DNA of 37,956 nucleotides from an uncultured virus (IMG/VR IMGVR_UViG_3300010938_000011) (Duplodnaviria > Heunggongvirae > Uroviricota > Caudoviricetes), in the IMG/VR virus record IMGVR_UViG_3300010938_000011; one strand, 5' to 3'. The translations under genes were made by a program, and so were the position numbers. The notes beneath the pieces are model-generated. The model saw only the letters and a list, made by a program, of their open reading frames with translations, did no database searches and was not told the origin of the DNA. Of this stretch, positions 1-32,736 are shown piece after piece. Each line of letters begins with the position of its first letter. Within the stretch, counting starts at the first letter, position 1.

Positions 1-2
1 CT

Positions 3-386
3 GAAGATAAATATCCTGCAGCCTCTTCTAATTATATAATAGATCTTAATGGAGATATTTATGAAATAATTCCTAAAGAAGAAGTATCTTGGCATGGAGG
101 TGGAAGATCTTATACAGATTTAGCTAAAAAATTATTTACAACTCCAAAAGGATATATAGATCCTAATCTATATTCAATAGGAATAGAAGTATGTCATCCT
201 GATGTTACAGGAAAATTTACTAATGAATCTTTAGAAGGCTTAAGAAGATTATTACTCTATTTAAGATCTATATATGGAAATATACCAATCATAAGACATC
301 ATGATATTACAGAAAAGCTATGTCCTTTATGGTTTGTCCAACATCCTGAAGAATGGAATAAATTCTTAGAAAGCTTGGAGGCTTAA
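3..386 (+). CDS. N-acetylmuramoyl-L-alanine amidase (Amidase_2-type endolysin), 5'-partial
   Basis: Manual translation of frame 3 (absent from the ORF track because it has no start): ..ASSNYIIDLNGDIYEIIP..VSWHGGG..NLYSIGIEVC..IIRHHDITEKLCP..LEA*. These are the typical Amidase_2 motifs (WH, SIGIE, H..K.CP). Confidence 0.9.
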   Translation, partial: EDKYPAASSNYIIDLNGDIYEIIPKEEVSWHGGGRSYTDLAKKLFTTPKGYIDPNLYSIGIEVCHPDVTGKFTNESLEGLRRLLLYLRSIYGNIPIIRHHDITEKLCPLWFVQHPEEWNKFLESLEA

Positions 387-387
387 T

Positions 388-858
388 ATGAGTTTAGAAA
401 AATATGTTAAGCCTAAATTGCTTAATTATTTTCTAAAAATAGTATATGCAGTATCTAATAATTCTGAATGCTTATCTAGAAAAACAGGATGTATTTTAAT
501 AAAAGAAAATACTATAATCTTAGAAGGATGGAATTCTCCTCCTTCTAAGTCTAATCCTGAAGAATGTGAAAGATGTATGTTAAAAGATAAATCTTCTATA
601 GATTATGGAATATGTACTCATGCTGAAGCTAATTTAATAGCTTCAGCTGCAAAATTTGGTATAAGAACAGAAGGATGTGTTCTATTAACTGTAACTAAAC
701 CTTGTTTATACTGTTCAGGATTAATTATTAGAGCAGGAATTTCTGCTGTTTTATATTTAGAAGGTTACAGAGGAAACTCAGAAAATCTTTTAAAAAAAGC
801 TAATGTAGAACTAATAAATTTAAAGGAGATAAATACACATGACACCTACGGTTTATAA
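388..858 (+). CDS. dCMP deaminase (ComEB/DCTD family)
   Basis: Zn-deaminase motifs THAEAN and KPCLYC, plus SECLSRKTGC and GWN. Confidence 0.93.
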   Translation: MSLEKYVKPKLLNYFLKIVYAVSNNSECLSRKTGCILIKENTIILEGWNSPPSKSNPEECERCMLKDKSSIDYGICTHAEANLIASAAKFGIRTEGCVLLTVTKPCLYCSGLIIRAGISAVLYLEGYRGNSENLLKKANVELINLKEINTHDTYGL

Positions 859-1519
859 TAATTTAGATGAAGTTTTTATTCAAATGTACGAAAAAGGTTA
901 TTTCCTATCAAAAAGAGGAATAAAGTACAAATGCTTGTTTAATCCTATAATTGTCCTAAAACCAGGAGTTATAAAAACCTATAAAAGCAGACCTTTAAGT
1001 ATACAATATTTGATAGATGAATTGAGGTGGTATTTGAATCCTAATGAAGAAAATACTGAAAGAATTAAAAAATATAAAATATGGAAAGAGTATTTTGATG
1101 GAGGAAAAATATTTTCAAATTATGGTGAAAAAGCTTTAAAACAATTACCTAATGTAATTAAGGAATTACAAAATGATATGTTTACTACTAGAGCTATAAT
1201 TTATTATGGTTCTATAGAAAATTTAGGTATTATACAAAATGGAGAATCTATAGATATGGTATGTACTATCGCTATGCAATTTTATTTTACTTTAGATAAT
1301 TTCTTAAATGCTACAATTTATATGAGATCTAATGATTTAATATTTGGATTTTTTTATGATTTTATATGGGCTTCTTTGTTATTTGAAAAAGTATTAAAGA
1401 ATTTTCCTAAAGCTAAAACTGGAAATTTAACTTGGATTGTTACCAATCTTCATGTTTATGAAAAAGACTTTAAAAAATTAGAAGAGATTTATTTTGAAAT
1501 AAAAGGAGGTTTAAAATGA
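839..1519 (+). CDS. Thymidylate-synthase-family enzyme, most likely dCMP hydroxymethylase (T4 gp42-like)
   Basis: Contains ELRWYL, SNYG, TRAII, catalytic DMVCT, MRSNDLIFGFFYD and NLHVYE. There is Asp at the position that is Asn177 in E. coli ThyA and Asp179 in T4 gp42. It has MRSND rather than QRS.D and lacks the PCH motif. Confidence 0.8.
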   Translation: MTPTVYNNLDEVFIQMYEKGYFLSKRGIKYKCLFNPIIVLKPGVIKTYKSRPLSIQYLIDELRWYLNPNEENTERIKKYKIWKEYFDGGKIFSNYGEKALKQLPNVIKELQNDMFTTRAIIYYGSIENLGIIQNGESIDMVCTIAMQFYFTLDNFLNATIYMRSNDLIFGFFYDFIWASLLFEKVLKNFPKAKTGNLTWIVTNLHVYEKDFKKLEEIYFEIKGGLK

Positions 1520-2226
1520 AAGCTTGTGTTTTTATTTTAAATGGATATACAGATTTTTATCCTATAACTAAAGAATCCTTTAAAAGAAGTTTTCCTAATT
1601 TAGATATATATAGAATAGAAGGACCTACTGAAAAATCTTACTATTCAAAAGATACTATACTTTATTTTGATGATTTAGATTTAGAACATAAATTTTATGT
1701 AAGCTATTTCCATCCTAGTACTTTTAAATTAGTTCTAATGATTCATGAAGAAATCAATAAGATTATTGAACATTACGATAGAATTATAATTTCTGATGAT
1801 GATATTTATTTCTTTAGAGGATTTGATTTAAAAGAATATGAATTAGCAGCTGTAAGAGATCCTTTTAGTAGAAATACTTTCTCTAAAGTTTTTAAAGTAT
1901 TTAATTGCTTTAATTTTGGATTTTCTATTTACTCTAAAGAATATTTTAAGAGAGCTAAAGAATTTGTTCAAAATGAGATTTTTAATAAAAAAATTAAAGA
2001 ATTTTTTGATAGACCTCTTATATTAGAAAAAGAAATACATTTCTTCGATCAATGGTCTATTTCAGAATTTTTCTTTGAGCATTCAGCTAAGAATATTTCT
2101 GATAAATTATTTTTAGGTCTTAATGAACCTACAGAAGATTTAGTAAAATTTGCTAAAAAATATTTTTGTGGTATACATTATATTAAAAATAAAAAAGAAT
2201 GGTTATCATTAATTTTAGGAGGTTAA
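1516..2226 (+). CDS. GT-A fold glycosyltransferase, GT8-like; candidate DNA/nucleotide glycosyltransferase
   Basis: GT8 motifs appear in order: YDRIIISDDDI (DxD), LAAVRD, FNFGF (cf. FNSG), FDQ, IHY...KEW (cf. IHY.G..KPW). ATGA-coupled to the upstream gene. Confidence 0.8.
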   Translation: MKACVFILNGYTDFYPITKESFKRSFPNLDIYRIEGPTEKSYYSKDTILYFDDLDLEHKFYVSYFHPSTFKLVLMIHEEINKIIEHYDRIIISDDDIYFFRGFDLKEYELAAVRDPFSRNTFSKVFKVFNCFNFGFSIYSKEYFKRAKEFVQNEIFNKKIKEFFDRPLILEKEIHFFDQWSISEFFFEHSAKNISDKLFLGLNEPTEDLVKFAKKYFCGIHYIKNKKEWLSLILGG

Positions 2227-2233
2227 AAAATAT

Positions 2234-2932
2234 ATGGAATACACAATTTACTATAGAGAAGTCGACCCATCAATTTCGGAAAAAGCTTTTTTATATTTAT
2301 TATTAGACAATTTAAGCCTATTTCCTCCAAAAATTCTTTTTTTAGAAAAAGTTCCTTATATAGAAAAAGGCTATTTAGAATTTGATAGATATAAATTTTT
2401 TTTTAAAAATAAAATAGATTTCAAAGACGTTCCTATTTTGCTAAATAATTTAATTGTATCTAAAAATATAAAGTATCTATTTGTAGATGGACCTAATAAA
2501 GTAGGAAAAAGTACTATTCTAAAAAATTTAAAAGCTTTAAATAAAAATTATTTTTTACCTGTTAGACTAAATAGAAAAGATCCTATAAGATATGATTCTT
2601 CTTTCTTCAAATATAATTTAGAACTTTTTATAGAATTTTATAATAATTATGGAATGGTAGAAGGACATACTCTCTTACTAGATAGATTTTTTATTTCTCA
2701 ATTTGTATATCATCCAGAATATAAAATAGAAGATTATTTAGTGGAAATAAGCCAAATTTTTAGCTTAGAAGGATCTTATTTTTTACTACTATTGCCTAAA
2801 AATTATAAAGAAGTATACTCTAATAATTCAGAATTATATGATAGGTATATTGAAATAGCTTCTAATATAAATAAAAAATTTTATAAAAAAATAAAGTTTT
2901 TTGATATATATGATATTCAACTTATCAAATAA
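2234..2932 (+). CDS. Thymidylate-kinase-like dNMP kinase with ~75-aa N-terminal extension
   Basis: P-loop FVDGPNKVGKST and TMK-type LLLDRFFISQFVY motif. Confidence 0.8.
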   Translation: MEYTIYYREVDPSISEKAFLYLLLDNLSLFPPKILFLEKVPYIEKGYLEFDRYKFFFKNKIDFKDVPILLNNLIVSKNIKYLFVDGPNKVGKSTILKNLKALNKNYFLPVRLNRKDPIRYDSSFFKYNLELFIEFYNNYGMVEGHTLLLDRFFISQFVYHPEYKIEDYLVEISQIFSLEGSYFLLLLPKNYKEVYSNNSELYDRYIEIASNINKKFYKKIKFFDIYDIQLIK

Positions 2933-2981
2933 TTTTTTTTTATATTTTTAAAAAAATTTTTTATAAAATAAATAAAAGGAG
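2931..2981 (+). promoter_or_regulatory. All-A/T intergenic element with phased T/A tracts (putative phage promoter), followed by SD
   Basis: aatttttttttatatttttaaaaaaattttttataaaataaataaaaggag; similar blocks occur at ~28926, ~32736, ~36622 and ~37331. Confidence 0.55.
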
Positions 2982-2987
2982 TAAAAT

Positions 2988-3602
2988 ATGGTTTTACAAA
3001 AAACTAAAAATTTAATTTTACCAGAAAAAGCCGCTAGTGATGAAACTTTTTGTTTAGTAGCTTTACCTTCTGAAAAACATCCTTTCATACAAAATTTCTT
3101 TTTTACACCAGAAAAATTAGATAAAGTTTTAGATTTTGCTAAAGAATATCCTAATTTATGTGTAACTTTAAATTCCTATAAAGACTCTTCTTCTAGGTCT
3201 ATAGATAATATCTATAAATTCCATAGAATCTTATTAGATATAGATACTTTAATTTCTGAAGAAAGATTAAAAGAAATAATTAAAAAGCTTGAAGAATTTT
3301 TTATATCTGAAGATTCTTTAGATATTTGTTTAAGAGAAATAAAACCTAACCAATATAGAGCTCATATAGTAGTAAATTTTCTACCTTTAGATCTAACTAA
3401 ATTTAGTGAAAAAGGTCTTTTAGATTTAAGATACTTAGTTAAAGGATTAATTTATTCTATAAAGACGGAAATTCCAGAAATAGATTCTAAAGTTAATGAT
3501 TTGACTAGAATATGTAGATTGCCTAATTTTGAATATGAAGGAACTAATTCTTATTTTATTTATAAAGAGCATACTAATTTAATTGATTTAAATCAATTAT
3601 AA
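2988..3602 (+). CDS. Stand-alone AEP/RepB'-type primase catalytic domain
   Basis: Motif I LLDID, motif II RAHIVV and motif III region DSKVNDLTRICRLP. No helicase domain is attached. Confidence 0.7.
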   Translation: MVLQKTKNLILPEKAASDETFCLVALPSEKHPFIQNFFFTPEKLDKVLDFAKEYPNLCVTLNSYKDSSSRSIDNIYKFHRILLDIDTLISEERLKEIIKKLEEFFISEDSLDICLREIKPNQYRAHIVVNFLPLDLTKFSEKGLLDLRYLVKGLIYSIKTEIPEIDSKVNDLTRICRLPNFEYEGTNSYFIYKEHTNLIDLNQL

Positions 3603-3618
3603 AGGAGGAAACTTAAAA

Positions 3619-3897
3619 ATGATTTCAAAAGTTTTAGACAGTATAGCAAAACTTTTAATTAAAAAAGGTAATTCACCTTTAAAAGAAGGTTCTATGAAGG
3701 CTAATATTAAAGAATCTAAGCCTTCAGAAGAACCTAAAAAACCACCTAAACCAATAATAAATGGAGGAGATAAGAAGATGGCTATTAAGAAAACAGCTAA
3801 GAAAAATACAACTACTAAAGCTAAAAAAACTGCAACTAAAAAATCAGAACCTAAAGCTAAAAAAGTAGCTAAGAAAACTCCTAAGAAAAGGAGCTAA
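3619..3897 (+). CDS. Lys/Ala/Thr/Pro-rich histone H1-like DNA-binding protein; internal in-frame start at 3778
   Basis: The C-terminal segment MAIKKTAKKNTTTKAKKTATKKSEPKAKKVAKKTPKKRS has its own GGAGG at 3763-3767. Confidence 0.65.
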   Translation: MISKVLDSIAKLLIKKGNSPLKEGSMKANIKESKPSEEPKKPPKPIINGGDKKMAIKKTAKKNTTTKAKKTATKKSEPKAKKVAKKTPKKRS

Positions 3898-3900
3898 CAA

Positions 3901-4848
3901 ATGAAAAATAAAGTACATCTCCTTGTAAAAAATCAAAATCTTTTAAAAGATCTTGATTCTATTTATGGACCTTATGAAGATAAGGTCCTTTCTTCCTTTT
4001 CTCCTATGGTTTCTTTAGTAGAATTTGCTGGAAGAATATGTTATAATTCTGGAAGACCTAATTCTAAAAATAGGCCTACTGTAGAATATTTTAAACATAT
4101 TATAGAATCTAAGCATTATTCTATCTTTGGCCATTGGATGAAATTTTTCAGAATTAAAAATATGAAAAATTTTTTAAATTATATAAGCGTTCATAAACGA
4201 ACTTATTTAAGACAAGACCCTAATAAGAATTTTTATGTTATTCTTAGCTTAAGACATTTAATAGAAAATTTAGAAAACGATACTATAAGTGAAGTAACTA
4301 GAGATTTAGCCTTAGCTTATAAAGAATTTGGAATAGAGGCTAAATACAATAAATTATTAGAAATCATACCTGATAAATATTCTGTAATTGAACCTTATAA
4401 TTTTTTAGAGAATATTTATTCTTTTTTTATACAAACTTCTAGAAGAACTTCTTTAGAATTATTAAGACATAATACTGAATATTGTGTAAGTCAAGAATCT
4501 ACTAGATATGTCTCTAAAGGAGAATCAAAATTAGTAAATGAGGCTATGCCTATAAAGCTTAATCCTTTAGATAAAATTCTACTTAATATTGTACATAATT
4601 TAAGCTTGTATGCTTATAATTATATATTAAATTCTTATAAAACTAAAGATCTTTTAGAGAAAAAAACTTTAAGAGGATTTTTATCAGGTTATTTGCTACA
4701 AGATACAGATACAGTTTTAGTATATACTTGTACTGAATATCAATTTAATTGTATAAAAGAACAAAGATTAAGTCAATATGCTGATCCAAATATCAGAGAT
4801 TTAGTTGAAAAAATGAGTAAGGAGGTTGAAAAATATGGAGATGCCTAA
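3901..4848 (+). CDS. thyX: FAD-dependent thymidylate synthase
   Basis: EFAGRICY, HYSIFGH, SRRTSLELLRH..SQESTRYV and RLSQYADPNIR match ThyX motifs. The signature is a variant (RHN-x8-S instead of RHR-x7-S). Confidence 0.88.
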   Translation: MKNKVHLLVKNQNLLKDLDSIYGPYEDKVLSSFSPMVSLVEFAGRICYNSGRPNSKNRPTVEYFKHIIESKHYSIFGHWMKFFRIKNMKNFLNYISVHKRTYLRQDPNKNFYVILSLRHLIENLENDTISEVTRDLALAYKEFGIEAKYNKLLEIIPDKYSVIEPYNFLENIYSFFIQTSRRTSLELLRHNTEYCVSQESTRYVSKGESKLVNEAMPIKLNPLDKILLNIVHNLSLYAYNYILNSYKTKDLLEKKTLRGFLSGYLLQDTDTVLVYTCTEYQFNCIKEQRLSQYADPNIRDLVEKMSKEVEKYGDA

Positions 4849-7480
4849 TTGTAAATGTGCTATTCATTCAAAAGCAATGATGAGATATACTGTTGAGAAC
4901 GGGTTCTTTTATATAAAAGATTTAGGTTCTAAGAATTTCTCAGTAATTAGAGAAGAAAATTTGCTTAATAAAGAAATTGATATAGTTTTACTTTTAGGAT
5001 ATTATTATCCTAAAGAGATTTTTTCTGAATTTATTTTAAAGCTATTTAAGGAAGTAGAAGAAACCTTTATAGCTAAAGGAAAATCTATTTTGATTATTCC
5101 TTATTTAGGCTGTACTCCTACTAAATTTTCCTTAAAAGGAATAAGTGGTACAATACAATCAAAATGTTTCTCTATTAATACGTTTAAGATTTTACAAAAA
5201 GTAAATGTTAAAACTATTATAGCTACATCTTTATTTTCTAGCAAAATATTAGGAGTATCTTTTAAAGACCATATAGCTTTATCTGATTATTCTAATTTAA
5301 GAAATTTCTCTTTTTGGTGGACTGAACTTAAAACTAGAGTTTTTCTTATGGAAGAACCTTTATTCTTTTTAGAAAAAGAAGAAGAACATTTTTTAAATAG
5401 ATTTTTTAGAAAAGTTTTATTTTCAGCTTTAAGTTATGTTCATAATCAAATGCATATTGTAGAAAGAGTAGAATCTGAAAAATTAATTGAAATAATAGAT
5501 ATTACTTCAGATGAACAGCTAGATGAAATAACAAATGATTCAAATAGAGAAGTATTTTCATTAGATATAGAAACTACATCTTTAAATTTTAAAGACGGAG
5601 AAATTTTGTCTATCCAATTTTCAGATCATCCTCATAAAGCTTATTTTTTGTATTTAAAAAATACTAAAGTAAGCAAAGAGGCTATAAAAAGATTTCTTAA
5701 ATCTAAAAGATTTATATTTCATAATGGATTCTTTGATATTAAATTCTTATTAGAAAAAGAATTTTTTGAAAAAGGAAATTTTGAAGTAGAAGGAGATACT
5801 TTATTAGCTAAGTATTCTTTAGAACCTAATTTTAGATATTCTTTAAAAACATTAGCTTATTTTTATACCTATTATGGAGGATATGAAAGAGATTTAAAAG
5901 AAGAATTAGAAGAAAAATCTTCTTTTGGAGATATAGGTTATGAGACTTTTAGACAATATGCTGCTTATGATGCAGCGATTACTTTTCAAATTTGGTCTTT
6001 TCTTAAAAAAGAAATATCAGAAGATAAAAATGTGGAAAAACATTATAAGAATTTCTATATACCTTGCGTAAAAACTATTCCTTCAATAGAAAGAGAAGGT
6101 ATAAAAATAGATACAGATTATTATAGATCTTTTTCTATTGAATTAGCTAAATACCTAAAATGGTTAGATGAAAATTTATATAAAGAATTAGGAGAAATAA
6201 ACTTTAGATCAGCTAAACAATTAACTGAAGCTATATTAAGTAGATATCCTGAAATAAAAGATAAACTAAAATTTTCAGAAAAAACTTCTCAAATCTTAAT
6301 AAATTCAGATACTTTAGAACAATATGAAAAAACATTAAACTTACCTTTCGCTAAATATTTAGCTAAAAGGAATAGATTATTAACTCTACTTAGCCATATG
6401 TCTATTTCTGATATATATTCTCTCTTTTATAAAGAATCTAATATAGATTCTGAAAAATTAATAGATTTATTACAAAGGATAGATATTTTTGATAAAAAAA
6501 TCTATACTAAGTTAAATAAAGGACTATTAACTACTTATGAAGATGGATACGTATATGTAGCTACTTCTTTATTTAAAACAATTTCAGGAAGAATGGCTTC
6601 TGCTAAATCTTTAAGAGGAAGTGTGAATTTCTTAGGACTTCCTAAATATAAAGACTATAGAAAAATTTATACTTCTAGATTTGGAAAAGATGGATTTTTA
6701 TTAGAAATAGACTTTGATTCTATGGAAATTTTAATATTAGCTCATATAGTTGGAGAAGGACCTTTATATCAAGTTTTAAGAGATGGAATGGATATTCACT
6801 CTTATTTTGGTTATAAGCTTTGGAATAAGCTAAAAGGTGAAATAACTTATGAAGAATTTTATCAAAAAGCTAAATTAGAAGGAGTTCTTGAATTTGCTAA
6901 ATTTAGAGGATTATGTAAGAATGTTTCATTTACTGCTCAATATGGAGGTTCTTATAAAGCAGTAATGGGTGTAACAGGAATTTCTAAAGAAGAAGCTCAA
7001 CAAGTTTTAGAAAATTATTATGACACCTTTCCAGAAATTTATAGCTATATGAAAAAGATAGAATTAGATGCAACTAATGGTATTCCTATCTATTCTTTAT
7101 TAGGAAAAAGACTTTACATGAGAAGCTTAAAACATTCTTTATCTAAATATTTAGATAAGCCTTCTTTAATAAGAACTTGCATAAATTTTCCAGTACAATC
7201 TTCTGCTTCTAATATTACCATTTTAGCTTTTATCAATATATATAATTCTCTAAGAAGGTCTAAAGCTTTATTGTCAGTTCATGACTCTATCTTATTTGAC
7301 TTTTATAGAGAAGATTATGAACAAGATTTAGAAATTATTAAAGAATATACAACTAATATTAATCATTATATAGAACCAAAAATAGACTTACCTTTAAAAT
7401 GTTCAGCTAAGAAAGGTCTTTCTGAAGAAGACTTAGGCTTTTTTGAAAAGAATATGCCTAATATCATTAGTTACGAATAA
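4835..7480 (+). CDS. polA: Family A DNA polymerase with N-terminal UDG-like domain and 3'-5' exonuclease
   Basis: Exonuclease motifs SLDIETT, FHNGFFD and YAAYDA; polymerase motifs TISGRMAS, A (EIDFDSMEILILA), B (RGLCKNVSFTAQYG), NFPVQS and C (VHDSI). The N-terminal CKC..GCTP..KCF..KTIIA pattern resembles family-4 UDG. The likely start is ATG 4835 after AAGGAGG (the track gives TTG 4826). Confidence 0.95.
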   Translation: MEMPNCKCAIHSKAMMRYTVENGFFYIKDLGSKNFSVIREENLLNKEIDIVLLLGYYYPKEIFSEFILKLFKEVEETFIAKGKSILIIPYLGCTPTKFSLKGISGTIQSKCFSINTFKILQKVNVKTIIATSLFSSKILGVSFKDHIALSDYSNLRNFSFWWTELKTRVFLMEEPLFFLEKEEEHFLNRFFRKVLFSALSYVHNQMHIVERVESEKLIEIIDITSDEQLDEITNDSNREVFSLDIETTSLNFKDGEILSIQFSDHPHKAYFLYLKNTKVSKEAIKRFLKSKRFIFHNGFFDIKFLLEKEFFEKGNFEVEGDTLLAKYSLEPNFRYSLKTLAYFYTYYGGYERDLKEELEEKSSFGDIGYETFRQYAAYDAAITFQIWSFLKKEISEDKNVEKHYKNFYIPCVKTIPSIEREGIKIDTDYYRSFSIELAKYLKWLDENLYKELGEINFRSAKQLTEAILSRYPEIKDKLKFSEKTSQILINSDTLEQYEKTLNLPFAKYLAKRNRLLTLLSHMSISDIYSLFYKESNIDSEKLIDLLQRIDIFDKKIYTKLNKGLLTTYEDGYVYVATSLFKTISGRMASAKSLRGSVNFLGLPKYKDYRKIYTSRFGKDGFLLEIDFDSMEILILAHIVGEGPLYQVLRDGMDIHSYFGYKLWNKLKGEITYEEFYQKAKLEGVLEFAKFRGLCKNVSFTAQYGGSYKAVMGVTGISKEEAQQVLENYYDTFPEIYSYMKKIELDATNGIPIYSLLGKRLYMRSLKHSLSKYLDKPSLIRTCINFPVQSSASNITILAFINIYNSLRRSKALLSVHDSILFDFYREDYEQDLEIIKEYTTNINHYIEPKIDLPLKCSAKKGLSEEDLGFFEKNMPNIISYE

Positions 7481-7523
7481 GAGATACTATAATATTATAT
7501 AACTGTTATAAGGGTCATAAAAT

Positions 7524-10500
7524 ATGAAAAGTAGACTGTATTTGCCTAAAAATCTTTTAAATTTAGTCCATAATTTAGACTTGCAAGATTCTGAGGTAAT
7601 TAACAGAATATCAGAAATTTCTTCTGAAGAAGTAATTGTTCAAAAATCTCTTTTATCATCTTTATTAACTACAAATCTACAAGAAAAATTAAATTTAAGC
7701 AATGAGAAATTTTTATCTTCATCAGTTCCTTATTATGCATTTTATTTAGCAGGATCTCTAATTCCATACGAAAAATTTTCTCAATTAGAAAATACTCTTA
7801 TATCTAAGATAGAAGGTGTAGTATTACATACAGCAATAAATTCTTTATCTAAAGACATTTCCGAAACTGAAACCAAAAAAGAACAAATAGTATTAAATTT
7901 AAGTACTAGCATAAAAGAAAATTATTACAAAACTATTCCTACAGAAGATGTACTTGAAGCTTATAATAAAATTAAAAATGAAACTATATCTGAAAATAGA
8001 GATTATATTAAAGAATTAGAAGAAAAATTTATAAATCCATTAACAATGGAAAAGATTAGTTCTGATGATGACGAGTTTGATGATTTAGATGCTTCTAAAT
8101 TACTATCTAAAAGAAGATACTTACATATACCAGATTCTATTTTTTCTTTAGCTCTACTAAAATTAGGTATCATACTTCAATATTTCGCTACTACAGATGA
8201 AGATCCAGTAAAAAAATTAGAAATAGAAGATTCTTCTTTCTTTTTTAAAGTTTTAATTTTTAATTTGAAAAAATTCTTAAGGAAATTAGATATAAAAGCT
8301 CCTACTTCTGAAGACACTCCATTATCTTCTGTATCTTATATTTCTAACTTAAAGAAATTTCTTCTTTATGATTTTAGAGAGGATATTCCTAAAATAGAAT
8401 CTTTATATTCTGGAATCAAGGATAATCAACAATTTTATGAATTAGAATACAAATATAATTCTACTATTAGGTCTTTAATTGGTAAAAATATTTATGAAGA
8501 TAGTACTTCAGGACCTAAACTTTTTAGGTATCACATGTATTTATTACATAATTTAGCTTTATCTTCTTTAGATTATTTGGAATCTATTTTAAAGAAATCT
8601 TCTAATATTTTTGATGTAGAATCCTATATATCTAAAAAATTAGAATATCCTTTTACTAAAGAAACCGACTCTAAAAGAATTCCTTCAAACCCTCTTTTAA
8701 TTTTTGAAAAATCTTCAAATCCTTTAGAAGTAAAATTAGAAGTTATAAATGAGCTTAAGCAAAAAATTAAAGAACAACTTTCTAAAAATAAAACTGCTAT
8801 AAAGAAATTTTTAGAAAAAGAAGATCAATCTAAAAGTGAAACAAGAAAATCTACTAAAGGACAAACTATAGTCGTAAATGTTTTTAAGGAAGAAATAATT
8901 TTTGCTTTACAATATTCTGTTCCTCTAATAGAATTAGCTTTAAATTTTAGTCTATTATTTAAACCTTTTACCAAATCAGTAAGATCAAAAAAACGATTAG
9001 AAGAACTTAAAGATATTCTCATAAAGAACATTTCTGTTCATTTTGAAACTTCTAATATTTCTTCTAAAGAAATAGAAGATATTGTTGAAGGCTTTATTGT
9101 AGCGGCTTTTAATAATAATGAATTTGATGAAGAAAAATTAGAAGACCTTATTTCTCTTAATTTAAAAAGAATAGATTCTTTAATCAATGATCCAAATTTT
9201 TCTGAATTTCTTTTAAATATAAAAGATTCTATTTCAGAATTTAGAAATTTGGATATATCTTTTTCAGATAATCTTTTTGAAAGAGCAGACCTTTTAGTAA
9301 AAAAACTTTATAACATAATAGATACATATATAAAAGCTTTTAAAATAGCTTTTATTAGTCCTATATTTTTAAATCTTTTACAATTTATACAAAAGGAAAA
9401 CAATATTTTACAAGTTGATTTTAAGGCTATTGAAGAATTATTGAATGAGGCTGCTGAGAATTCTTTAAGAGATAAACAAAATCATACATATTTAATAAAT
9501 GAGATTACAGAAGTTTTAAAAGATTATTTTTCAGATCCAGAAGTACGTAATAAGCTTTTAGAATTTTTTAAAAATTCGTTTTTCGTATATGAAAGAAAAT
9601 CTAGTATTAGGCCCTCTGATTTAGAAATAAGTGAGAGAGAATTATTTGAGCAATTAAACAATCCAAAATTTTTAGACTTATTAAAAAATAATTTAAACCA
9701 AAAAGACTTTAAAGTTCTTGATGAAGAGGTAAAAAATATTTATATTAAGATATTATCTTTAGCTTCTAATAAATTATCTAGTTCTGATTCAGAATCTTTA
9801 GAACAAATTCTAAATCATATATTTGAAGACTCTATAAAAAAATTCATAATAGATTTACTTAATCTCTTTCCTACAGAAGAAAATATGAAGAAATTTATAG
9901 AGAATCCTACAGAAAAACCTAAAGAAGATCCTGTAACAAAATTCTTAAAGAAATTAAGATTCTATTTAGATTTAGCTTCTAATAAAGTAGAATCACTTTC
10001 TTCAGATGATATGACTAGATTAATATTAGCAGTTGCTAGAAATTACTTAAATTATTTAGCTACTAATTCTATTCTTGAGAAAAAATATCCTATTGCTTTT
10101 GAAATTATTAATTTAATTAGAAAAAATAAAGATCTTTATAATGAGGCTGTTTATTTTGCTGTAACTGAAAATTTAACACCTACGACTTCTAAAATGTTCG
10201 TATGCACCACAAAAGCTTTAAGAGATACATTTCTATTTATAAATAAGCATTTGAACAATTATATTACATTAAAAGCTAGAAAACTTAAAAACTCTAAAAA
10301 TGAAGAAGATCAAAAACTTTTTGAGATTTATAAGTCTGTTTCTAGTAATGTTTATTACCTTAAATCTTTTAGAATTTTTCAGTATTTGGAAATTTATCTT
10401 TTAGAATTCCTAGAAGTAATAGAGAATTTTAGTTCATTTGAAGATACTTTAGTAAAATCTTATAATAGTTTTGAATCAACAGTACGTACTGAAAATTTTA

Positions 10501-13220
10501 GTAATGTTAAAGTAAAGGTAGGTGCTTCTAAATCAGCTGCTAAAATAGAAGAAGTAGATCAAATGTCTTCAGATGAGGTAGAAACAGAAGAAGAAAGAAA
10601 TTTAAAAGAATTTATAGAAAGAAGAGCTTTAGAAGAATTTAGTAATTTAATTTCAAAATTTGAATACTTAGTTATATCAAATTTTTCTTTTTATAAAGAT
10701 CATTTAGGTATTACAAATTTAGGAGAACTTTTAGATATTAATATCAAAGGTTATGATAAATTTATAAAGGATAAAGCTAAATTTTTTATAGAAAAAATAA
10801 AATCTAAAGCTGAACTTTTTAATGAAATATTAGCTATAGCTATAAAGAAATTCTTATTAGGAGAAGATTTCTTTAAGCTTAAGGATAAAGATGAAGAGGC
10901 TAAGAAGTTAGTAGTAAATATTCAACTAAATTTTTCAAAAATTCTTAAAGAAGATAAATATTTAGCTTATTCTATTTCTACAAAATTAAGCACTGATTCA
11001 AAATTCTTTTATTTTTTTAAATCAGAAAATATTAAGGATGCAGCTTCTCAAGAGCTTCGTTATTTTTCTAATTCTAATATAATAGATAAGGATGGAAATT
11101 TAAATATATCTCTTTTAGATAAAATTTTAGATTCAAATTTTAGTATGATTTCTAAATATTTAAGAAACAAAATCTCTTCCGCTAAGGATACAGAAGAAGC
11201 TAAAAATTTAGAAAGAATTTTAGACAAATATACAATTAATTATGATACAGCTAAATTTTATTTAGAAATTCTCAAAAAAATCTTAAATAAAAGAATTGTA
11301 TTTTATTTGAGTCCTAATTTAGACTCTAGAACTTTTGCTTCAGATATAGTAATTCCAGAAAGAAATTATATATTCTCTTTATTTAGAGATTCTGTAATAC
11401 AACAATTTCTTTCTCAGTTTGATCCTATACATGGTACTAGAAGAAAAGAAGTAATATATAAACCAAATTTAACTTATTTAATTCTTCAAAATATGTTTAA
11501 TGGATACTTTGAAAGAAAATTAAATTCTCAATTTTCTAAGCAATCAATGAAATCTTTACTTTCTTTATTAAATTCTTCTTTAGAAGGAAATCGTATAGAT
11601 TATAAAAATCTTAATAGAGATTTACGCAATAGCCTAATTGATGATAATTTTATTACTTTACTTCTCAAAAAATTCTTAGCTAATATTTATTATTCTATAT
11701 TCAAAAATGCTGAATACATCAAAGTAGCTTCTTTTGAAGGAAAAGATCTTGATGAGGTTCTAAATAAATATAAAGGCTTTTACAAAGCTTCTATTATAGA
11801 AAAACTCAAAAACGAGAACAATCCTTTTGTTGTAGAATTTTATTCTACAGGAAAAATTGTTAACTTAGTAAAAAAAGAATTTTATATAATATTTTTACAC
11901 TATCTTATCTTCTTACTAAGAAGATCAATTGAGAATGGAGAGGTTAATCCTAGAGTTTTAGATTTTATTTTACATTATTTAGGTATTCCTAAAAATGATA
12001 AAGATTTTAGAAATACTTTACAAAATTTGGCTACTTCTAATGAGTATACAGAAAGTCTAGAAAATTTAGATAAGAAATTTTTATATTATGAATCTGTATA
12101 TAGAACATTCAATAAAACATTTCATTCTGTCCAAATAAATTCTTTCTTCTCATTATTTGTTAAGAATAAAGACTTATATAGAATGTTATCTGTTATAGGA
12201 GTAGAAGATATTACTAAAACTATTTCTCATAAAGATAAAGAATTTGAAGCTGAAGTAGTTTCTGATGAAACAGCTCAAGAAATAGCTGGTACAGAAGAAA
12301 CGTATGAACCAGAAAAAGTTGAAGTTCCTTCTATAATAAGTAGAGAATTTTATGCAATTTTGATGCAGATAGGTGCTGGAGCTAATAAAGATCTTTCTAG
12401 CGATACCATATCTCTTATTGAACAAATAGTAGAGAATGCAACTAGTTCAAAAAGTGTAAAAATACTTTCTTCTATTATACCTACTATTTTACAAAGATGG
12501 AAAGTAATAGGATTAACTACTATAGATATACCAAATGCTTTAATTTTATTAGCTTTAGAATTAGGATTATTAGATCCTTCTAATAATAACATATTGAAAA
12601 ATAATCCTATCTACCTCTATTATTTAGCTAATTCTATAGCTTCTATATTTTCTTCTGAAAAGAATATTTCAATAGAAGATAACTTTATTGTAAAAAGATT
12701 ATTTAATGTATTTCTTCCTAATGAAAAAGTTAATTCTGAATTTGTAACTTTTGCTTTAAATATTTCTACTTATTTTACTCATACAGTTTCAGGTAATGGC
12801 ATGTTTGGTATAGCAATTAAACAAAAAACTCATTTTATAACAAAATTATTTAGCAATGATATATCTTTTATAGATCAAAAAAGTATAGGAAAATTTGAGT
12901 TTTCAAATATTTCTATGAAAGATATGACTGAAAATGAGTTTTATACTATAAAAGGATTACTAAATAGCAAAGAATTAGGAGAAGATTTTAGATCTTTTGC
13001 TTTAAGAAATGGTTTTTCTTTTAATTTAGCTAGACTAAGAGATTTATTAACTATTCAAGAAGATAATGACCTATATAAATTTTCTAAATTAGTAATAAGA
13101 GCTATAGTAGAAAATAAACATATAGTTTTCGAAAAGAATACAAAAAATGGAATGTACATTCCAAAATTAGTAGATAAATTTAATACAAATGATATTCTAA
13201 TTACTGATATTAGAAGATAA
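7524..13220 (+). CDS. Giant 1898-aa hypothetical protein, predicted mostly helical
   Basis: Long uninterrupted ORF with genome-typical codon use and no recognisable catalytic motif; no SD upstream. Confidence 0.85.
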   Translation: MKSRLYLPKNLLNLVHNLDLQDSEVINRISEISSEEVIVQKSLLSSLLTTNLQEKLNLSNEKFLSSSVPYYAFYLAGSLIPYEKFSQLENTLISKIEGVVLHTAINSLSKDISETETKKEQIVLNLSTSIKENYYKTIPTEDVLEAYNKIKNETISENRDYIKELEEKFINPLTMEKISSDDDEFDDLDASKLLSKRRYLHIPDSIFSLALLKLGIILQYFATTDEDPVKKLEIEDSSFFFKVLIFNLKKFLRKLDIKAPTSEDTPLSSVSYISNLKKFLLYDFREDIPKIESLYSGIKDNQQFYELEYKYNSTIRSLIGKNIYEDSTSGPKLFRYHMYLLHNLALSSLDYLESILKKSSNIFDVESYISKKLEYPFTKETDSKRIPSNPLLIFEKSSNPLEVKLEVINELKQKIKEQLSKNKTAIKKFLEKEDQSKSETRKSTKGQTIVVNVFKEEIIFALQYSVPLIELALNFSLLFKPFTKSVRSKKRLEELKDILIKNISVHFETSNISSKEIEDIVEGFIVAAFNNNEFDEEKLEDLISLNLKRIDSLINDPNFSEFLLNIKDSISEFRNLDISFSDNLFERADLLVKKLYNIIDTYIKAFKIAFISPIFLNLLQFIQKENNILQVDFKAIEELLNEAAENSLRDKQNHTYLINEITEVLKDYFSDPEVRNKLLEFFKNSFFVYERKSSIRPSDLEISERELFEQLNNPKFLDLLKNNLNQKDFKVLDEEVKNIYIKILSLASNKLSSSDSESLEQILNHIFEDSIKKFIIDLLNLFPTEENMKKFIENPTEKPKEDPVTKFLKKLRFYLDLASNKVESLSSDDMTRLILAVARNYLNYLATNSILEKKYPIAFEIINLIRKNKDLYNEAVYFAVTENLTPTTSKMFVCTTKALRDTFLFINKHLNNYITLKARKLKNSKNEEDQKLFEIYKSVSSNVYYLKSFRIFQYLEIYLLEFLEVIENFSSFEDTLVKSYNSFESTVRTENFSNVKVKVGASKSAAKIEEVDQMSSDEVETEEERNLKEFIERRALEEFSNLISKFEYLVISNFSFYKDHLGITNLGELLDINIKGYDKFIKDKAKFFIEKIKSKAELFNEILAIAIKKFLLGEDFFKLKDKDEEAKKLVVNIQLNFSKILKEDKYLAYSISTKLSTDSKFFYFFKSENIKDAASQELRYFSNSNIIDKDGNLNISLLDKILDSNFSMISKYLRNKISSAKDTEEAKNLERILDKYTINYDTAKFYLEILKKILNKRIVFYLSPNLDSRTFASDIVIPERNYIFSLFRDSVIQQFLSQFDPIHGTRRKEVIYKPNLTYLILQNMFNGYFERKLNSQFSKQSMKSLLSLLNSSLEGNRIDYKNLNRDLRNSLIDDNFITLLLKKFLANIYYSIFKNAEYIKVASFEGKDLDEVLNKYKGFYKASIIEKLKNENNPFVVEFYSTGKIVNLVKKEFYIIFLHYLIFLLRRSIENGEVNPRVLDFILHYLGIPKNDKDFRNTLQNLATSNEYTESLENLDKKFLYYESVYRTFNKTFHSVQINSFFSLFVKNKDLYRMLSVIGVEDITKTISHKDKEFEAEVVSDETAQEIAGTEETYEPEKVEVPSIISREFYAILMQIGAGANKDLSSDTISLIEQIVENATSSKSVKILSSIIPTILQRWKVIGLTTIDIPNALILLALELGLLDPSNNNILKNNPIYLYYLANSIASIFSSEKNISIEDNFIVKRLFNVFLPNEKVNSEFVTFALNISTYFTHTVSGNGMFGIAIKQKTHFITKLFSNDISFIDQKSIGKFEFSNISMKDMTENEFYTIKGLLNSKELGEDFRSFALRNGFSFNLARLRDLLTIQEDNDLYKFSKLVIRAIVENKHIVFEKNTKNGMYIPKLVDKFNTNDILITDIRR

Positions 13221-30981: not shown

Positions 30982-31001
30982 TGTATTCTATAATTTTTGA
31001 T
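30864..31001 (+). ncRNA. Putative TnpB omega-RNA (reRNA) scaffold plus guide
   Basis: Starts downstream of the promoter; contains stems cttagc/gctaag and ggactg/cagtcc; the scaffold ends at TCAC 30981, so the flank tgtattctataatttttgat would be the guide. Confidence 0.6.
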
Positions 31002-31032
31002 GATGAAGACTAAAAAAGGAGGTACTAAAAAA

Positions 31033-32736
31033 ATGACTAAAAAATATAGAGTTCTTTCTGATGTAGAACATGTTTTATTAAGGCCTACAATGTATGTAGG
31101 CGAAACTTCTCCTATAAATATAGAAACTTTTGTATATGAAAATGAAAAGCTAATTCAGAAAAAAATAAATTTAGAAATTTTCATTTATAAAATGTTTGAT
31201 GAGATCCTAACTAATTCTATAGATGAAAGTAAGAAAAATCCTAAGCTAAATAAAATAGAAATAACAATAGATTCTCCTCTTATAGAAATAAAAGATAATG
31301 GAGGAATAGAAGTTAAGAAATTTATAGATAATAAATATCTTCCTGAAGTCTTATTCTCTTATTTAAGAGCTGGTAGTAATTTTGATAATCAAGAACAAGA
31401 AGTAACTGGAATGTATGGAGTAGGAGCTTCTTTAGTAAATATTTTCTCTAAGTATTTTAAAGTAGAGACTGCTTTAAATGGAAAAAGATTTATAGGAGAA
31501 TGGAGAAATAATTCTTTAGAAAAAGATATAAAAATAGACAATTGTAAAGAAAATTATACAAAGGTTAGCTTTATATTAGATGAAAGTAAAATTCCATACG
31601 AATTTAATTTAGATACGAAAAACTTCTTAATTAGAAGAATTATTGATTTTACTTATCAAGCTAACCATATACAATTCTATTTAAATGGAAAGGCTTTACC
31701 TAAAATTACTTCATTTGAAAAATATTGTAAATTATATTCAACTCATATAGATAAAATTTATGAGACTAAAAAATTAAGCTTTTGTTTATTCGATCCTTCT
31801 GAAATAAAGATAAAAGAATCTTTTGTGAATGGAAATTTAACTTTAGAGCATGGATATCATGTAAATTTTCTTTTAAAAGAATTGTCTTCTAGAGTAAGTG
31901 AAGATTTACAGAATTTGCTTAAAAATAATTTAAGCTTTTTGCTTATTCTAAATACTAAAGAACCAAAATATTCTTCTCAAGATAAATACAAATTTATAGG
32001 AAAAGACTTTTCTAACCTTTATATTAATAAAGCTTTTATAGAAGAATCTAAAACTTATCAGTATTTATTAGATTTAAGAAATGTAGCTAATAAGAAAGAA
32101 ATAGAAAAGGAAATTAGAAAGATAAAAAGATCTTCTATACCTCATTACTTTGAAGCTACTTCTAAGAAAGATAAAATCCTATTTATTACTGAAGGAGAAT
32201 CAGCTGCTTTAGCTGGTAAATCTGTAAGATCTTCCAATATGGCTTTTTATTCATTAAGAGGTAAATTTATTAATGTTACAGCTCCTACCAATAAACTAAA
32301 TAAAAATGAAGAATTCAAAAATCTTTCCTATATTCTTAAGAATGAAACTTTCGATAAAATAGTTATTATGTCTGATTTAGATTATGATGGTAATGCTATT
32401 GCTGCTTTATTAATAAATTTCTTTTATTCTTACTTTCCAGAAATTATTAAGGAAGGAAAGCTGTATAGATTTGTATCTCCATTAATTAAAGCAGACAATG
32501 AATTCTTTGCTTCAATAAAAGAATTTCAAGCTTCTAATAAAAAATATAAAGAAGTAAAATACTGTAAAGGATTAGGTTCTTTTACCATGAAAGACTTTAA
32601 AATATTCTTTTCTAATTTAGATAACTACTTAATGGTTTTAGAATATACAAAAGATACTCCTGTATGGTTAGAAAGATTATTTTCTAAATCTCATGAGAGT
32701 ATAGAATGGAGAAAGCAATGGCTTCAATACAAATAA
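31033..32736 (+). CDS. Type IIA topoisomerase large (ATPase+TOPRIM) subunit, T4 gp39/60-like
   Basis: EHVLLRPTMYVG, FDEILTNSIDE, DNGG, GSNFD, GMYGVGASLVN, ITEGESA, LRGK, MSDLDYDG and KGLGS. The true start is ATG 31033 after AAGGAGGT (the track gives 30997). Confidence 0.95.
   Translation: MTKKYRVLSDVEHVLLRPTMYVGETSPINIETFVYENEKLIQKKINLEIFIYKMFDEILTNSIDESKKNPKLNKIEITIDSPLIEIKDNGGIEVKKFIDNKYLPEVLFSYLRAGSNFDNQEQEVTGMYGVGASLVNIFSKYFKVETALNGKRFIGEWRNNSLEKDIKIDNCKENYTKVSFILDESKIPYEFNLDTKNFLIRRIIDFTYQANHIQFYLNGKALPKITSFEKYCKLYSTHIDKIYETKKLSFCLFDPSEIKIKESFVNGNLTLEHGYHVNFLLKELSSRVSEDLQNLLKNNLSFLLILNTKEPKYSSQDKYKFIGKDFSNLYINKAFIEESKTYQYLLDLRNVANKKEIEKEIRKIKRSSIPHYFEATSKKDKILFITEGESAALAGKSVRSSNMAFYSLRGKFINVTAPTNKLNKNEEFKNLSYILKNETFDKIVIMSDLDYDGNAIAALLINFFYSYFPEIIKEGKLYRFVSPLIKADNEFFASIKEFQASNKKYKEVKYCKGLGSFTMKDFKIFFSNLDNYLMVLEYTKDTPVWLERLFSKSHESIEWRKQWLQYK

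Follow-up and report, generated by a model that had tools for sequence, protein, structure and literature searches.

Does an AT-rich phage that lies outside the T4 family and replicates with a family A DNA polymerase make glycosylated 5-hydroxymethylcytosine (5hmC), and, if so, which of its proteins adds the sugar? The question is raised by four genes at positions 388-2932 of a 37,956-nucleotide (nt) stretch of DNA from an uncultured virus of the Caudoviricetes (IMG/VR record IMGVR_UViG_3300010938_000011), a stretch that we refer to as a whole as the window. A previous sequence-only reading had proposed that these genes form a new cytosine-hypermodification pathway—dCMP deaminase, dCMP hydroxymethylase-like thymidylate-synthase (TS) homologue, GT8-like glycosyltransferase and deoxynucleotide kinase—in a PolA phage. 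Glycosylated hydroxymethylcytosine protects phage DNA against restriction enzymes as well as some CRISPR systems, and the enzymes that make it also serve as epigenetic sequencing tools; the locus presents a case outside the T4 family, in which a gp42-type enzyme belongs to an AT-rich myovirus that uses PolA.

The balance of evidence leans slightly toward the block being a pre-replicative 5hmC pathway with a post-replicative sugar step. Specifically, the gp42-type enzyme (839-1519), whose signature is described below, would convert dCMP and methylene-tetrahydrofolate to 5-hydroxymethyl-dCMP (5hm-dCMP); the TMK-like kinase (2234-2932) would raise this to the diphosphate and a host NDP kinase to 5hm-dCTP; and the phage PolA (4826-7480) would accept and incorporate the modified nucleotide. 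The product of open reading frame (ORF) 1516-2226 would then move a sugar from a host UDP-sugar onto 5hmC in DNA, as its motifs, weak profile similarities and position suggest, with a linkage that would probably be alpha if the protein is truly GT8-like (i.e., retaining). In parallel, the dCMP deaminase, a ThyX-like enzyme and an upstream dUTPase would supply dTTP for a genome of 77% A+T, the dUTPase being seen in a sister record (G001; 45.6 kb, 99% identical to the window, 27% complete by CheckV) that adds 13 kb upstream. The phage would probably gain protection from restriction enzymes and from other defences that target DNA.

The four genes are present as first described, all on the + strand and tightly packed (388-858, 839-1519, 1516-2226 and 2234-2932). 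The first two overlap by 20 nt and the second and third by 4 nt, a 7-nt gap precedes the fourth, and a Shine-Dalgarno site of GGAGG or AAGGAG type precedes the start of each. The designation as a PolA phage likewise holds (PF00476, 4.4e-40, at 4826-7480).

The gp42-type enzyme

The 226-residue product of 839-1519 (+) is a TS homologue by profile (PF00303, 3.1e-16; 59.8 bits against a cut-off of 24.3). Its closest solved structure is T4 deoxycytidylate hydroxymethylase (1b49, 4e-14, residues 16-213), followed in the PDB ranking by the CMP hydroxymethylase MilA (5e-8) and then by genuine thymidylate synthases. The motifs on which the earlier proposal had drawn were all found: SNYG, "VCT" where ThyA has "PCH", and MRSND....GFFYD. 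Relatives are widespread, with 816 of 50,697 phage records matching at E <= 1e-6 and 27-35% identity; among the matches listed, the annotation is mostly dCMP hydroxymethylase or thymidylate synthase, with a few entries called hypothetical or left unannotated. Genes resembling gene 42 occur in many non-T4 phages, including phages of Bacteroides, Xanthomonas, Pelagibacter and Chryseobacterium.

Residue rules for this family are given in the available text of a recent study (PMC13326640, NAR 2026). With positions numbered as in E. coli ThyA, the catalytic residue is C146, N177D changes the substrate specificity to dCMP, acidity at L143 gives water access and accompanies a hydroxymethyl rather than a methyl product, and D169N marks flavin-dependent 5-hydroxy-dCMP synthases, with 9 of 9 tested D169N homologues having yielded 5-hydroxycytosine (5hoC). 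In an alignment that joined the window protein to E. coli ThyA, T4 gp42, RB69 gp48 and three other phage homologues from annotated records, we compared 17 positions (12 from PMC13326640, together with R21, E58, R166, H207 and Y209, which we added as further ThyA positions). The window protein is identical to T4 gp42 at 16 of the 17, A142 being the sole difference, as compared with 10/17 for E. coli ThyA and 8/17 for RB69 gp48. Its cysteine aligns with C146 of E. coli ThyA and with the catalytic cysteine of gp42, and its diagnostic sites read Asp at L143, Cys146, a retained Asp169, and Asp at N177; D169N, which RB69 gp48 shows in this alignment, is absent from it. These residues constitute a 5hm-dCMP synthase signature, and we predict a dCMP 5-hydroxymethylase, the pattern fitting 5hm-dCMP and not 5-hydroxy-dCMP or dTMP. 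The earlier assignment as dCMP hydroxymethylase-like is therefore strengthened, with Asp at L143 and the kept Asp169 now standing beside Asp at N177.

There is a very small chance, in our estimation, that the enzyme instead gives another C5 product, whether 5-methyl-dCMP, 5-hydroxy-dCMP, or 5hm-dUMP made from the deaminase's dUMP. Product specificity is not provable from sequence, the diagnostic rules derive from a limited set of tested enzymes, and the gene lies directly 3' of one for a dUMP-making dCMP deaminase. However, Asp at N177 points to dCMP and not dUMP, Asp at L143 to hydroxymethyl and not methyl transfer, and Asp169 is kept where every tested 5hoC synthase carries D169N, all within a set of positions that agrees with T4 gp42 in all but one. 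A role as 5hoC synthase, in particular, was rejected on the published D169N marker.

Homologues in two other phages share these acidic residues. Bacteroides phage BF486P2 (locus L018) encodes two TS homologues (3159-3920 and 5992-6672), both with Asp at L143 and N177, and in Xanthomonas phage Xp15 (locus L019, 2375-6311) an Asp/Asp/Asp homologue adjoins a dCMP deaminase and lies ~1 kb 3' of an annotated carbamoyl transferase.

The gene between TS homologue and kinase

ORF 1516-2226 (+; 236 residues) begins within an ATGA that contains the TS homologue's stop codon and has its own Shine-Dalgarno site; it is translationally coupled to the gp42-type gene. Its product is a near-orphan. An exhaustive phmmer search of 1.84 billion representatives returned its own cluster (P0001) and one relative, P0002 (6.7e-20, 30-32% identity). 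Word-indexed searches, whether started from the protein, from P0002 or from both together, gave no further homologues, and tblastn against the 50,697 phage records gave no match.

The protein nevertheless contains the motifs for which the GT8 label had been proposed: DDD at 94-96, FNFG at 132, DQW at 178 and HYIKNKKEW at 221. Residues D94-D96, N133, G135, Q179, H221, K227 and W229 are invariant between it and P0002. The DxD follows a hydrophobic strand (RIIISDDD) and aligns to the LYLDAD stretch of WaaJ, and the C-terminal H-x5-K-x-W (IHYIKNKKEW) aligns to the WaaJ stretch IHYTGATKPW; in GT8 enzymes, we take this latter motif to provide metal and diphosphate ligands. We compared the ORF 1516-2226/P0002 pair by hhalign with a self-built GT8 alignment of nine sequences, six of them viral-record matches of WaaJ and the others E. 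coli WaaJ, E. coli WaaO and a Salmonella homologue. The score of 23.9 (P 0.015) lies above those of 200/200 column shuffles (maximum 23.3), and in the relaxed alignment DxD, FNxG and H-x5-K-x-W fall in register with WaaJ. When a self-built GT8 hidden Markov model was used to rank 78 proteins, i.e., the window's 77 six-frame ORFs of >= 60 residues and P0002, ORF 1516-2226 came first (E 0.027, 5.5 bits) and P0002 fourth. The ESM-Atlas neighbours, which we treat as a lead only, point the same way. Among the 30 nearest clusters, 22 are unnamed viral, six carry PF03407 Nucleotid_trans (at 22% in the one shown), another has GT8 at 99%, and the last has GT8 and PF03407 at 31% each; in all, eight of the 30 have PF03407 and/or PF01501, the only families represented. 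On these grounds, the protein probably (well above even) has a glycosyltransferase fold, and the gene between the TS homologue and the kinase is the best glycosyltransferase candidate, while assignment to the GT8 family is weakly supported. Thus, from the "full GT8 motif series" described originally, the motifs stand and the family does not yet follow from them.

A number of results weigh against the proposed transferase and its pathway. ORF 1516-2226 has no match in Pfam (even at E 10), PHROGs or NCBIfam; a Pfam search at E 10 with P0002 was also empty, and a PF01501 (GT8) search of the sister record found nothing. A PDB profile search with the ORF 1516-2226/P0002 alignment gave only chance matches to ribosomal proteins (E >= 0.29), the hhalign probability for GT8 is only 3%, and the DQ motif is out of register with that family. 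AlphaFold (AF2) models were unusable (pLDDT 33 from the single sequence; pLDDT 41 and pTM 0.43 from the two-sequence alignment). With the low-confidence pLDDT 41 model, Foldseek against the PDB gave nothing at E <= 0.001 and a meaningless best hit (polymerase eta, E 0.51), and in a VIA wide fold search, where the best Z was 2.9, four of 12 rows were nucleotide-sugar folds, all at noise level. No similarity was found between ORF 1516-2226 and either EcS1 gp036 or T4 beta-GT. The kinase, for its part, has no match to the Pfam thymidylate kinase family or to any PDB sequence (phmmer, E <= 1). Finally, a search for dCTPase and NDP-sugar synthesis genes, which the sequence-only reading had offered as a check, recognised none in the 51 kb covered (the window and the 13 kb upstream in the 27%-complete sister record, with about three quarters of the genome outside).

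Such results leave room for an explanation in which the phage makes 5hmC DNA, fully or partially, yet ORF 1516-2226 is no DNA glycosyltransferase, being instead an unrelated protein or a non-sugar decorator, with the 5hmC left bare or otherwise derivatised. That no library or structure search identifies the protein, and that its hhalign probability is so low, speaks for this view, and the Xp15 "carbamoyl transferase" gene upstream of an Asp/Asp/Asp TS homologue suggests that other derivatisations of 5hmC exist. We nevertheless regard it as unlikely, if a serious contender: the DxD, FNxG and H-x5-K-x-W motifs are collinear, invariant in P0002 and in register with GT8, the hhalign score exceeds every shuffle, the identified Atlas neighbours are solely sugar transferases, and the gene holds the slot occupied by the first glycosyltransferase in RB69 and EcS1 (see below).

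Alternatively, the protein could be a GT-A glycosyltransferase whose acceptor is not DNA (e.g., a virion protein or host surface polymer) and which sits beside nucleotide genes by chance. GT8 enzymes classically modify lipopolysaccharide, glycogenin or capsid proteins, and some giant-virus GT-A enzymes glycosylate virion proteins. In the available text of a metavirome survey (Pyle et al., bioRxiv 10.1101/2023.12.21.572611), ~65% of glycosyltransferase-containing viral contigs have no base-modification gene nearby, and the best PDB match of the enzymes GT14I/GT43I is the PBCV-1 capsid-protein glycosyltransferase. Against this, ORF 1516-2226 is translationally coupled to a dCMP hydroxymethylase homologue with a kinase 7 nt downstream, and its position equals that of the DNA arabinosyltransferase in RB69 and EcS1, on which account we consider a non-DNA acceptor improbable. 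Returning to DNA as the acceptor, the suggestion that sugar might be added at the nucleotide level found no support, and the characterised phage systems described in the accessible parts of PMC13326640 and bioRxiv 10.1101/2023.12.21.572611 glycosylate on DNA.

The kinase and the cassette in other phages

The fourth gene of the block (2234-2932, +; 232 residues) encodes a TMK-like P-loop nucleotide kinase, as had been proposed. It matches the phrog_761 thymidylate kinase profile (6.4e-7) and, by BLASTP, EcS1 gp035 (5e-9; 27% identity over 122 residues) and RB69p045 (7e-5), which Table 1 of PMC13326640 lists as the TMK-like "nucleotide kinases" of arabinosyl-5hoC clusters. The sole phage tblastn match (E 0.07) is to the "thymidylate kinase" gene of Escherichia phage EcS1. 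The kinase domain spans approximately residues 80-200, and its P-loop (GPNKVGKS at 86) and DRF (at 150) are both invariant in a three-kinase alignment. As T4 gp1 has solved structures (1dek/1del; PMC13326640, Table 1), the missing PDB sequence match indicates that this kinase is not gp1-like. An N-terminal extension of ~78 residues (window 2234-2470) is absent from the RB69 and EcS1 homologues and has no detectable relatives.

The three-kinase alignment recovered seven viral loci, and in 7/7 a TS homologue lies within 4 kb; one locus is the sister record of the same phage, five belong to T4-like genomes with an RB69-type TS homologue, and one (L026, 3539-6106) is on an unrelated high-GC PolA viral contig. 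This last locus combines genes for a TS homologue and a dCMP deaminase with one of the dUTPase_2 family and one for a kinase fusion. The fusion, a protein of 313 residues without similarity to ORF 1516-2226, joins a TMK-like kinase to an unknown C-terminal domain of ~180 residues. The L026 TS homologue has Asp at N177 and, by eye, a non-acidic Thr three residues before the catalytic Cys, and it may make a different C5 product.

The order of the genes is itself informative. In RB69, p048 (TS homologue), p047:046 (arabinosyltransferase 1) and p045 (TMK-like kinase) follow one another in transcriptional order; in EcS1, gp037, gp036 and gp035 have the same three functions, as do the consecutive locus tags DLP3 078-080 and RL38J1 214-216 in Table 1 of PMC13326640. 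These glycosyl-5-hydroxycytosine modules thus share the order TS homologue, transferase, kinase with the window. The first and third genes of the RB69 and EcS1 modules are homologous to the window's, whereas the middle gene is not. The TS homologues of all four modules carry D169N and make 5-hydroxy-dCMP with flavin, whereas the window enzyme keeps Asp169; their transferases resemble GT-B (PMC13326640, Table 1), whereas ORF 1516-2226 looks GT-A/GT8-like; and, unlike in RB69/EcS1-type modules, no NDP-arabinose or other sugar-nucleotide genes were seen in the window. The simplest reading would be that the cassette is conserved but its transferase was swapped for one of another fold.

T4 itself provides a second comparison. 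There, too, the beta-gt gene lies directly 3' of gene 42, the TS homologue is of the gp42 type seen here, and a dCMP deaminase is present. In contrast, T4 has the gp1 dNMP kinase where the window has a TMK-like kinase, GT-B alpha- and beta-glucosyltransferases where the window has a GT-A/GT8-like candidate dissimilar to beta-GT, and ThyA-type rather than ThyX-like dTMP synthesis; the window polymerase is of family A, whereas that of T4 is of family B; and the gp56 dCTPase of T4 has no counterpart recognised in the sequence seen for this phage.

A third comparison is with the metavirome enzymes of Pyle et al. (bioRxiv 10.1101/2023.12.21.572611). As described in the available text of that preprint, ~25,000 viral contigs contain glycosyltransferases, the majority with a GT-A fold, and these GT-A enzymes are split between 5mYOX and thymidylate-synthase neighbourhoods; they include phage GT-A enzymes that glycosylate 5hmC in DNA and are linked to TS homologues and dCMP deaminases. 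The main GT-A class, which is JGT/TarP-like with R...DDD...EDY/F motifs, is unlike ORF 1516-2226, by description only. GT14I and GT43I, in turn, structurally resemble WaaJ/WaaO (GT8), the references to which ORF 1516-2226 weakly aligned. However, these two enzymes are reported there to add secondary sugars in methyltransferase/5mYOX pathways, whereas the window candidate lies in a pre-replicative TS pathway and, as the only transferase seen, would have to add the first sugar.

Given these GT-A and GT8-like enzymes, the clusters of PMC13326640, and the gp42-like genes of many non-T4 phages, the original description of a "new pathway" is overstated: TS-linked GT-A enzymes, GT8-like DNA glycosyltransferases and TS–glycosyltransferase–kinase triads are already in print. 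Its chain of hydroxymethylase, kinase and glycosyltransferase is plausible, with the TS signature, the kinase and a best transferase candidate in place; what does not carry over is the GT8 assignment, which is unproven, and the extent of the novelty. A literature search combining hydroxymethylcytosine, phage and "glycosyltransferase family 8", with subscription journals and preprint supplements outside its scope, found no paper. The kind of system is already known, and what is particular here is a transferase candidate that lies outside every profile library, has one relative, and occupies the transferase position in a cassette whose other known carriers are Straboviridae and Pootjesviridae. 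The locus thereby highlights a recurring cassette of TS homologue, transferase and TMK-like kinase whose transferase position is held here by a library-invisible protein.

A more specific version of the proposal is tentative, with a somewhat less than even chance of being right. In it, ORF 1516-2226 and P0002 would constitute a new, extremely divergent GT8-like retaining family that places the first sugar directly on DNA 5hmC, in a PolA myovirus whose pathway is pre-replicative. Together with the TS homologue and the TMK-like kinase, the glycosyltransferase would form a portable cassette, its transferase slot open to unrelated folds (GT-B in Straboviridae, GT-A here) and its kinase dedicated to modified dCMP. 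Should the transferase prove real, the DNA glycosyltransferases would gain a new sequence family, whose linkage or sugar may be new as well; otherwise, the block would be an ordinary nucleotide-metabolism block for hydroxymethylcytosine.

Probable thymidylate supply and surrounding genes

The first gene of the block (388-858, +; 156 residues) is a dCMP deaminase, as had been claimed (PF00383, 5.5e-17, 62 bits against a cut-off of 25; phrog_174 dCMP deaminase, 4.4e-33), with its zinc motifs intact (HAE at 78; PCLYC, i.e., PCxxC, at 105). In T4, the cd gene encodes a dCMP deaminase that serves dTMP synthesis. Here, given the 77% A+T content of the genome and the ThyX-like gene that lies 1 kb downstream, the more probable role of the deaminase is to provide dUMP from which dTMP is made; contrary to the earlier proposal, it need not take part in cytosine modification. 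As a neighbour it is unexceptional, dCMP deaminase being typical of TS-type pathways in the available text of Pyle et al. (bioRxiv 10.1101/2023.12.21.572611).

The ThyX-like protein (3901-4848, +; 315 residues) is divergent (PF02511, 8.1e-16; PDB ThyX 3ge9, 3.7e-10; TIGR02170, 2.5e-13 and 50 bits, under the 87.9-bit cut-off). It is likely a dTMP synthase that would consume the deaminase's dUMP, and would thus be context for the cytosine-modification genes and not a member of them. Its signature is atypical, with RHN-T... in place of RHR and one extra residue, and ~95 residues (82-177) are inserted between its two conserved stretches; it could be either a divergent dTMP synthase or an enzyme of altered chemistry. 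The upstream dUTPase in the sister record is of the standard trimeric type (best PDB matches 1e-13). Having no similarity to T4 gp56, it was rejected as a gp56-like dCTPase.

The window as a whole is a phage fragment of 23% G+C in which every large ORF is on the + strand. It opens with a 5'-cut endolysin (amidase) gene (3-386). In the sister record, the trimeric dUTPase gene just before the endolysin (1175-1678, -, in the coordinates of that record's locus L006) and a family-4 UDG-like gene (3385-4026, -; PF03167, 2.9e-14) flank ORFans of 140 and 398 residues, and tail tube and sheath genes are also present upstream. These tail genes, along with the low CheckV completeness, indicate a large myovirus of which only a fraction of the genome has been seen. 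A blastn search of window 1-8000 against the 50,697 phage records gave no match, a promoter and terminator scan of 1-5000 gave no signal above shuffles, and a tRNA search found none.

Downstream of the ThyX-like gene, the polymerase (4826-7480, +) has a 3'-5' exonuclease domain (PF01612, 3.1e-18) and is followed directly by an ORF of 1898 residues (7524-13220, +) that has no Pfam or PHROG match. Beyond these lie DnaB-like helicase, primase, SbcCD-like, UvsX/RecA-like and topoisomerase II genes among many ORFans. The topoisomerase II genes, for the large subunit (phrog_543, 30997-32736, +) and subunit A (PF00521, 35067-36293, +), are split by ~2.3 kb of small ORFans.

Two small genes separate the kinase from the ThyX-like gene. 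The first (2988-3602, +) encodes an ORFan of 204 residues for which three of 30 ESM-Atlas neighbour clusters carry RepB_primase (18% of members in the one cluster shown). This lead points to a function in replication, not in modification, and the gene was rejected as a second modification enzyme. The second (3619-3897, +) encodes a Lys-rich protein of 92 residues that may be DNA-binding and has a long, histone-H1-like C-terminal tail rich in Lys, Ala and Thr.

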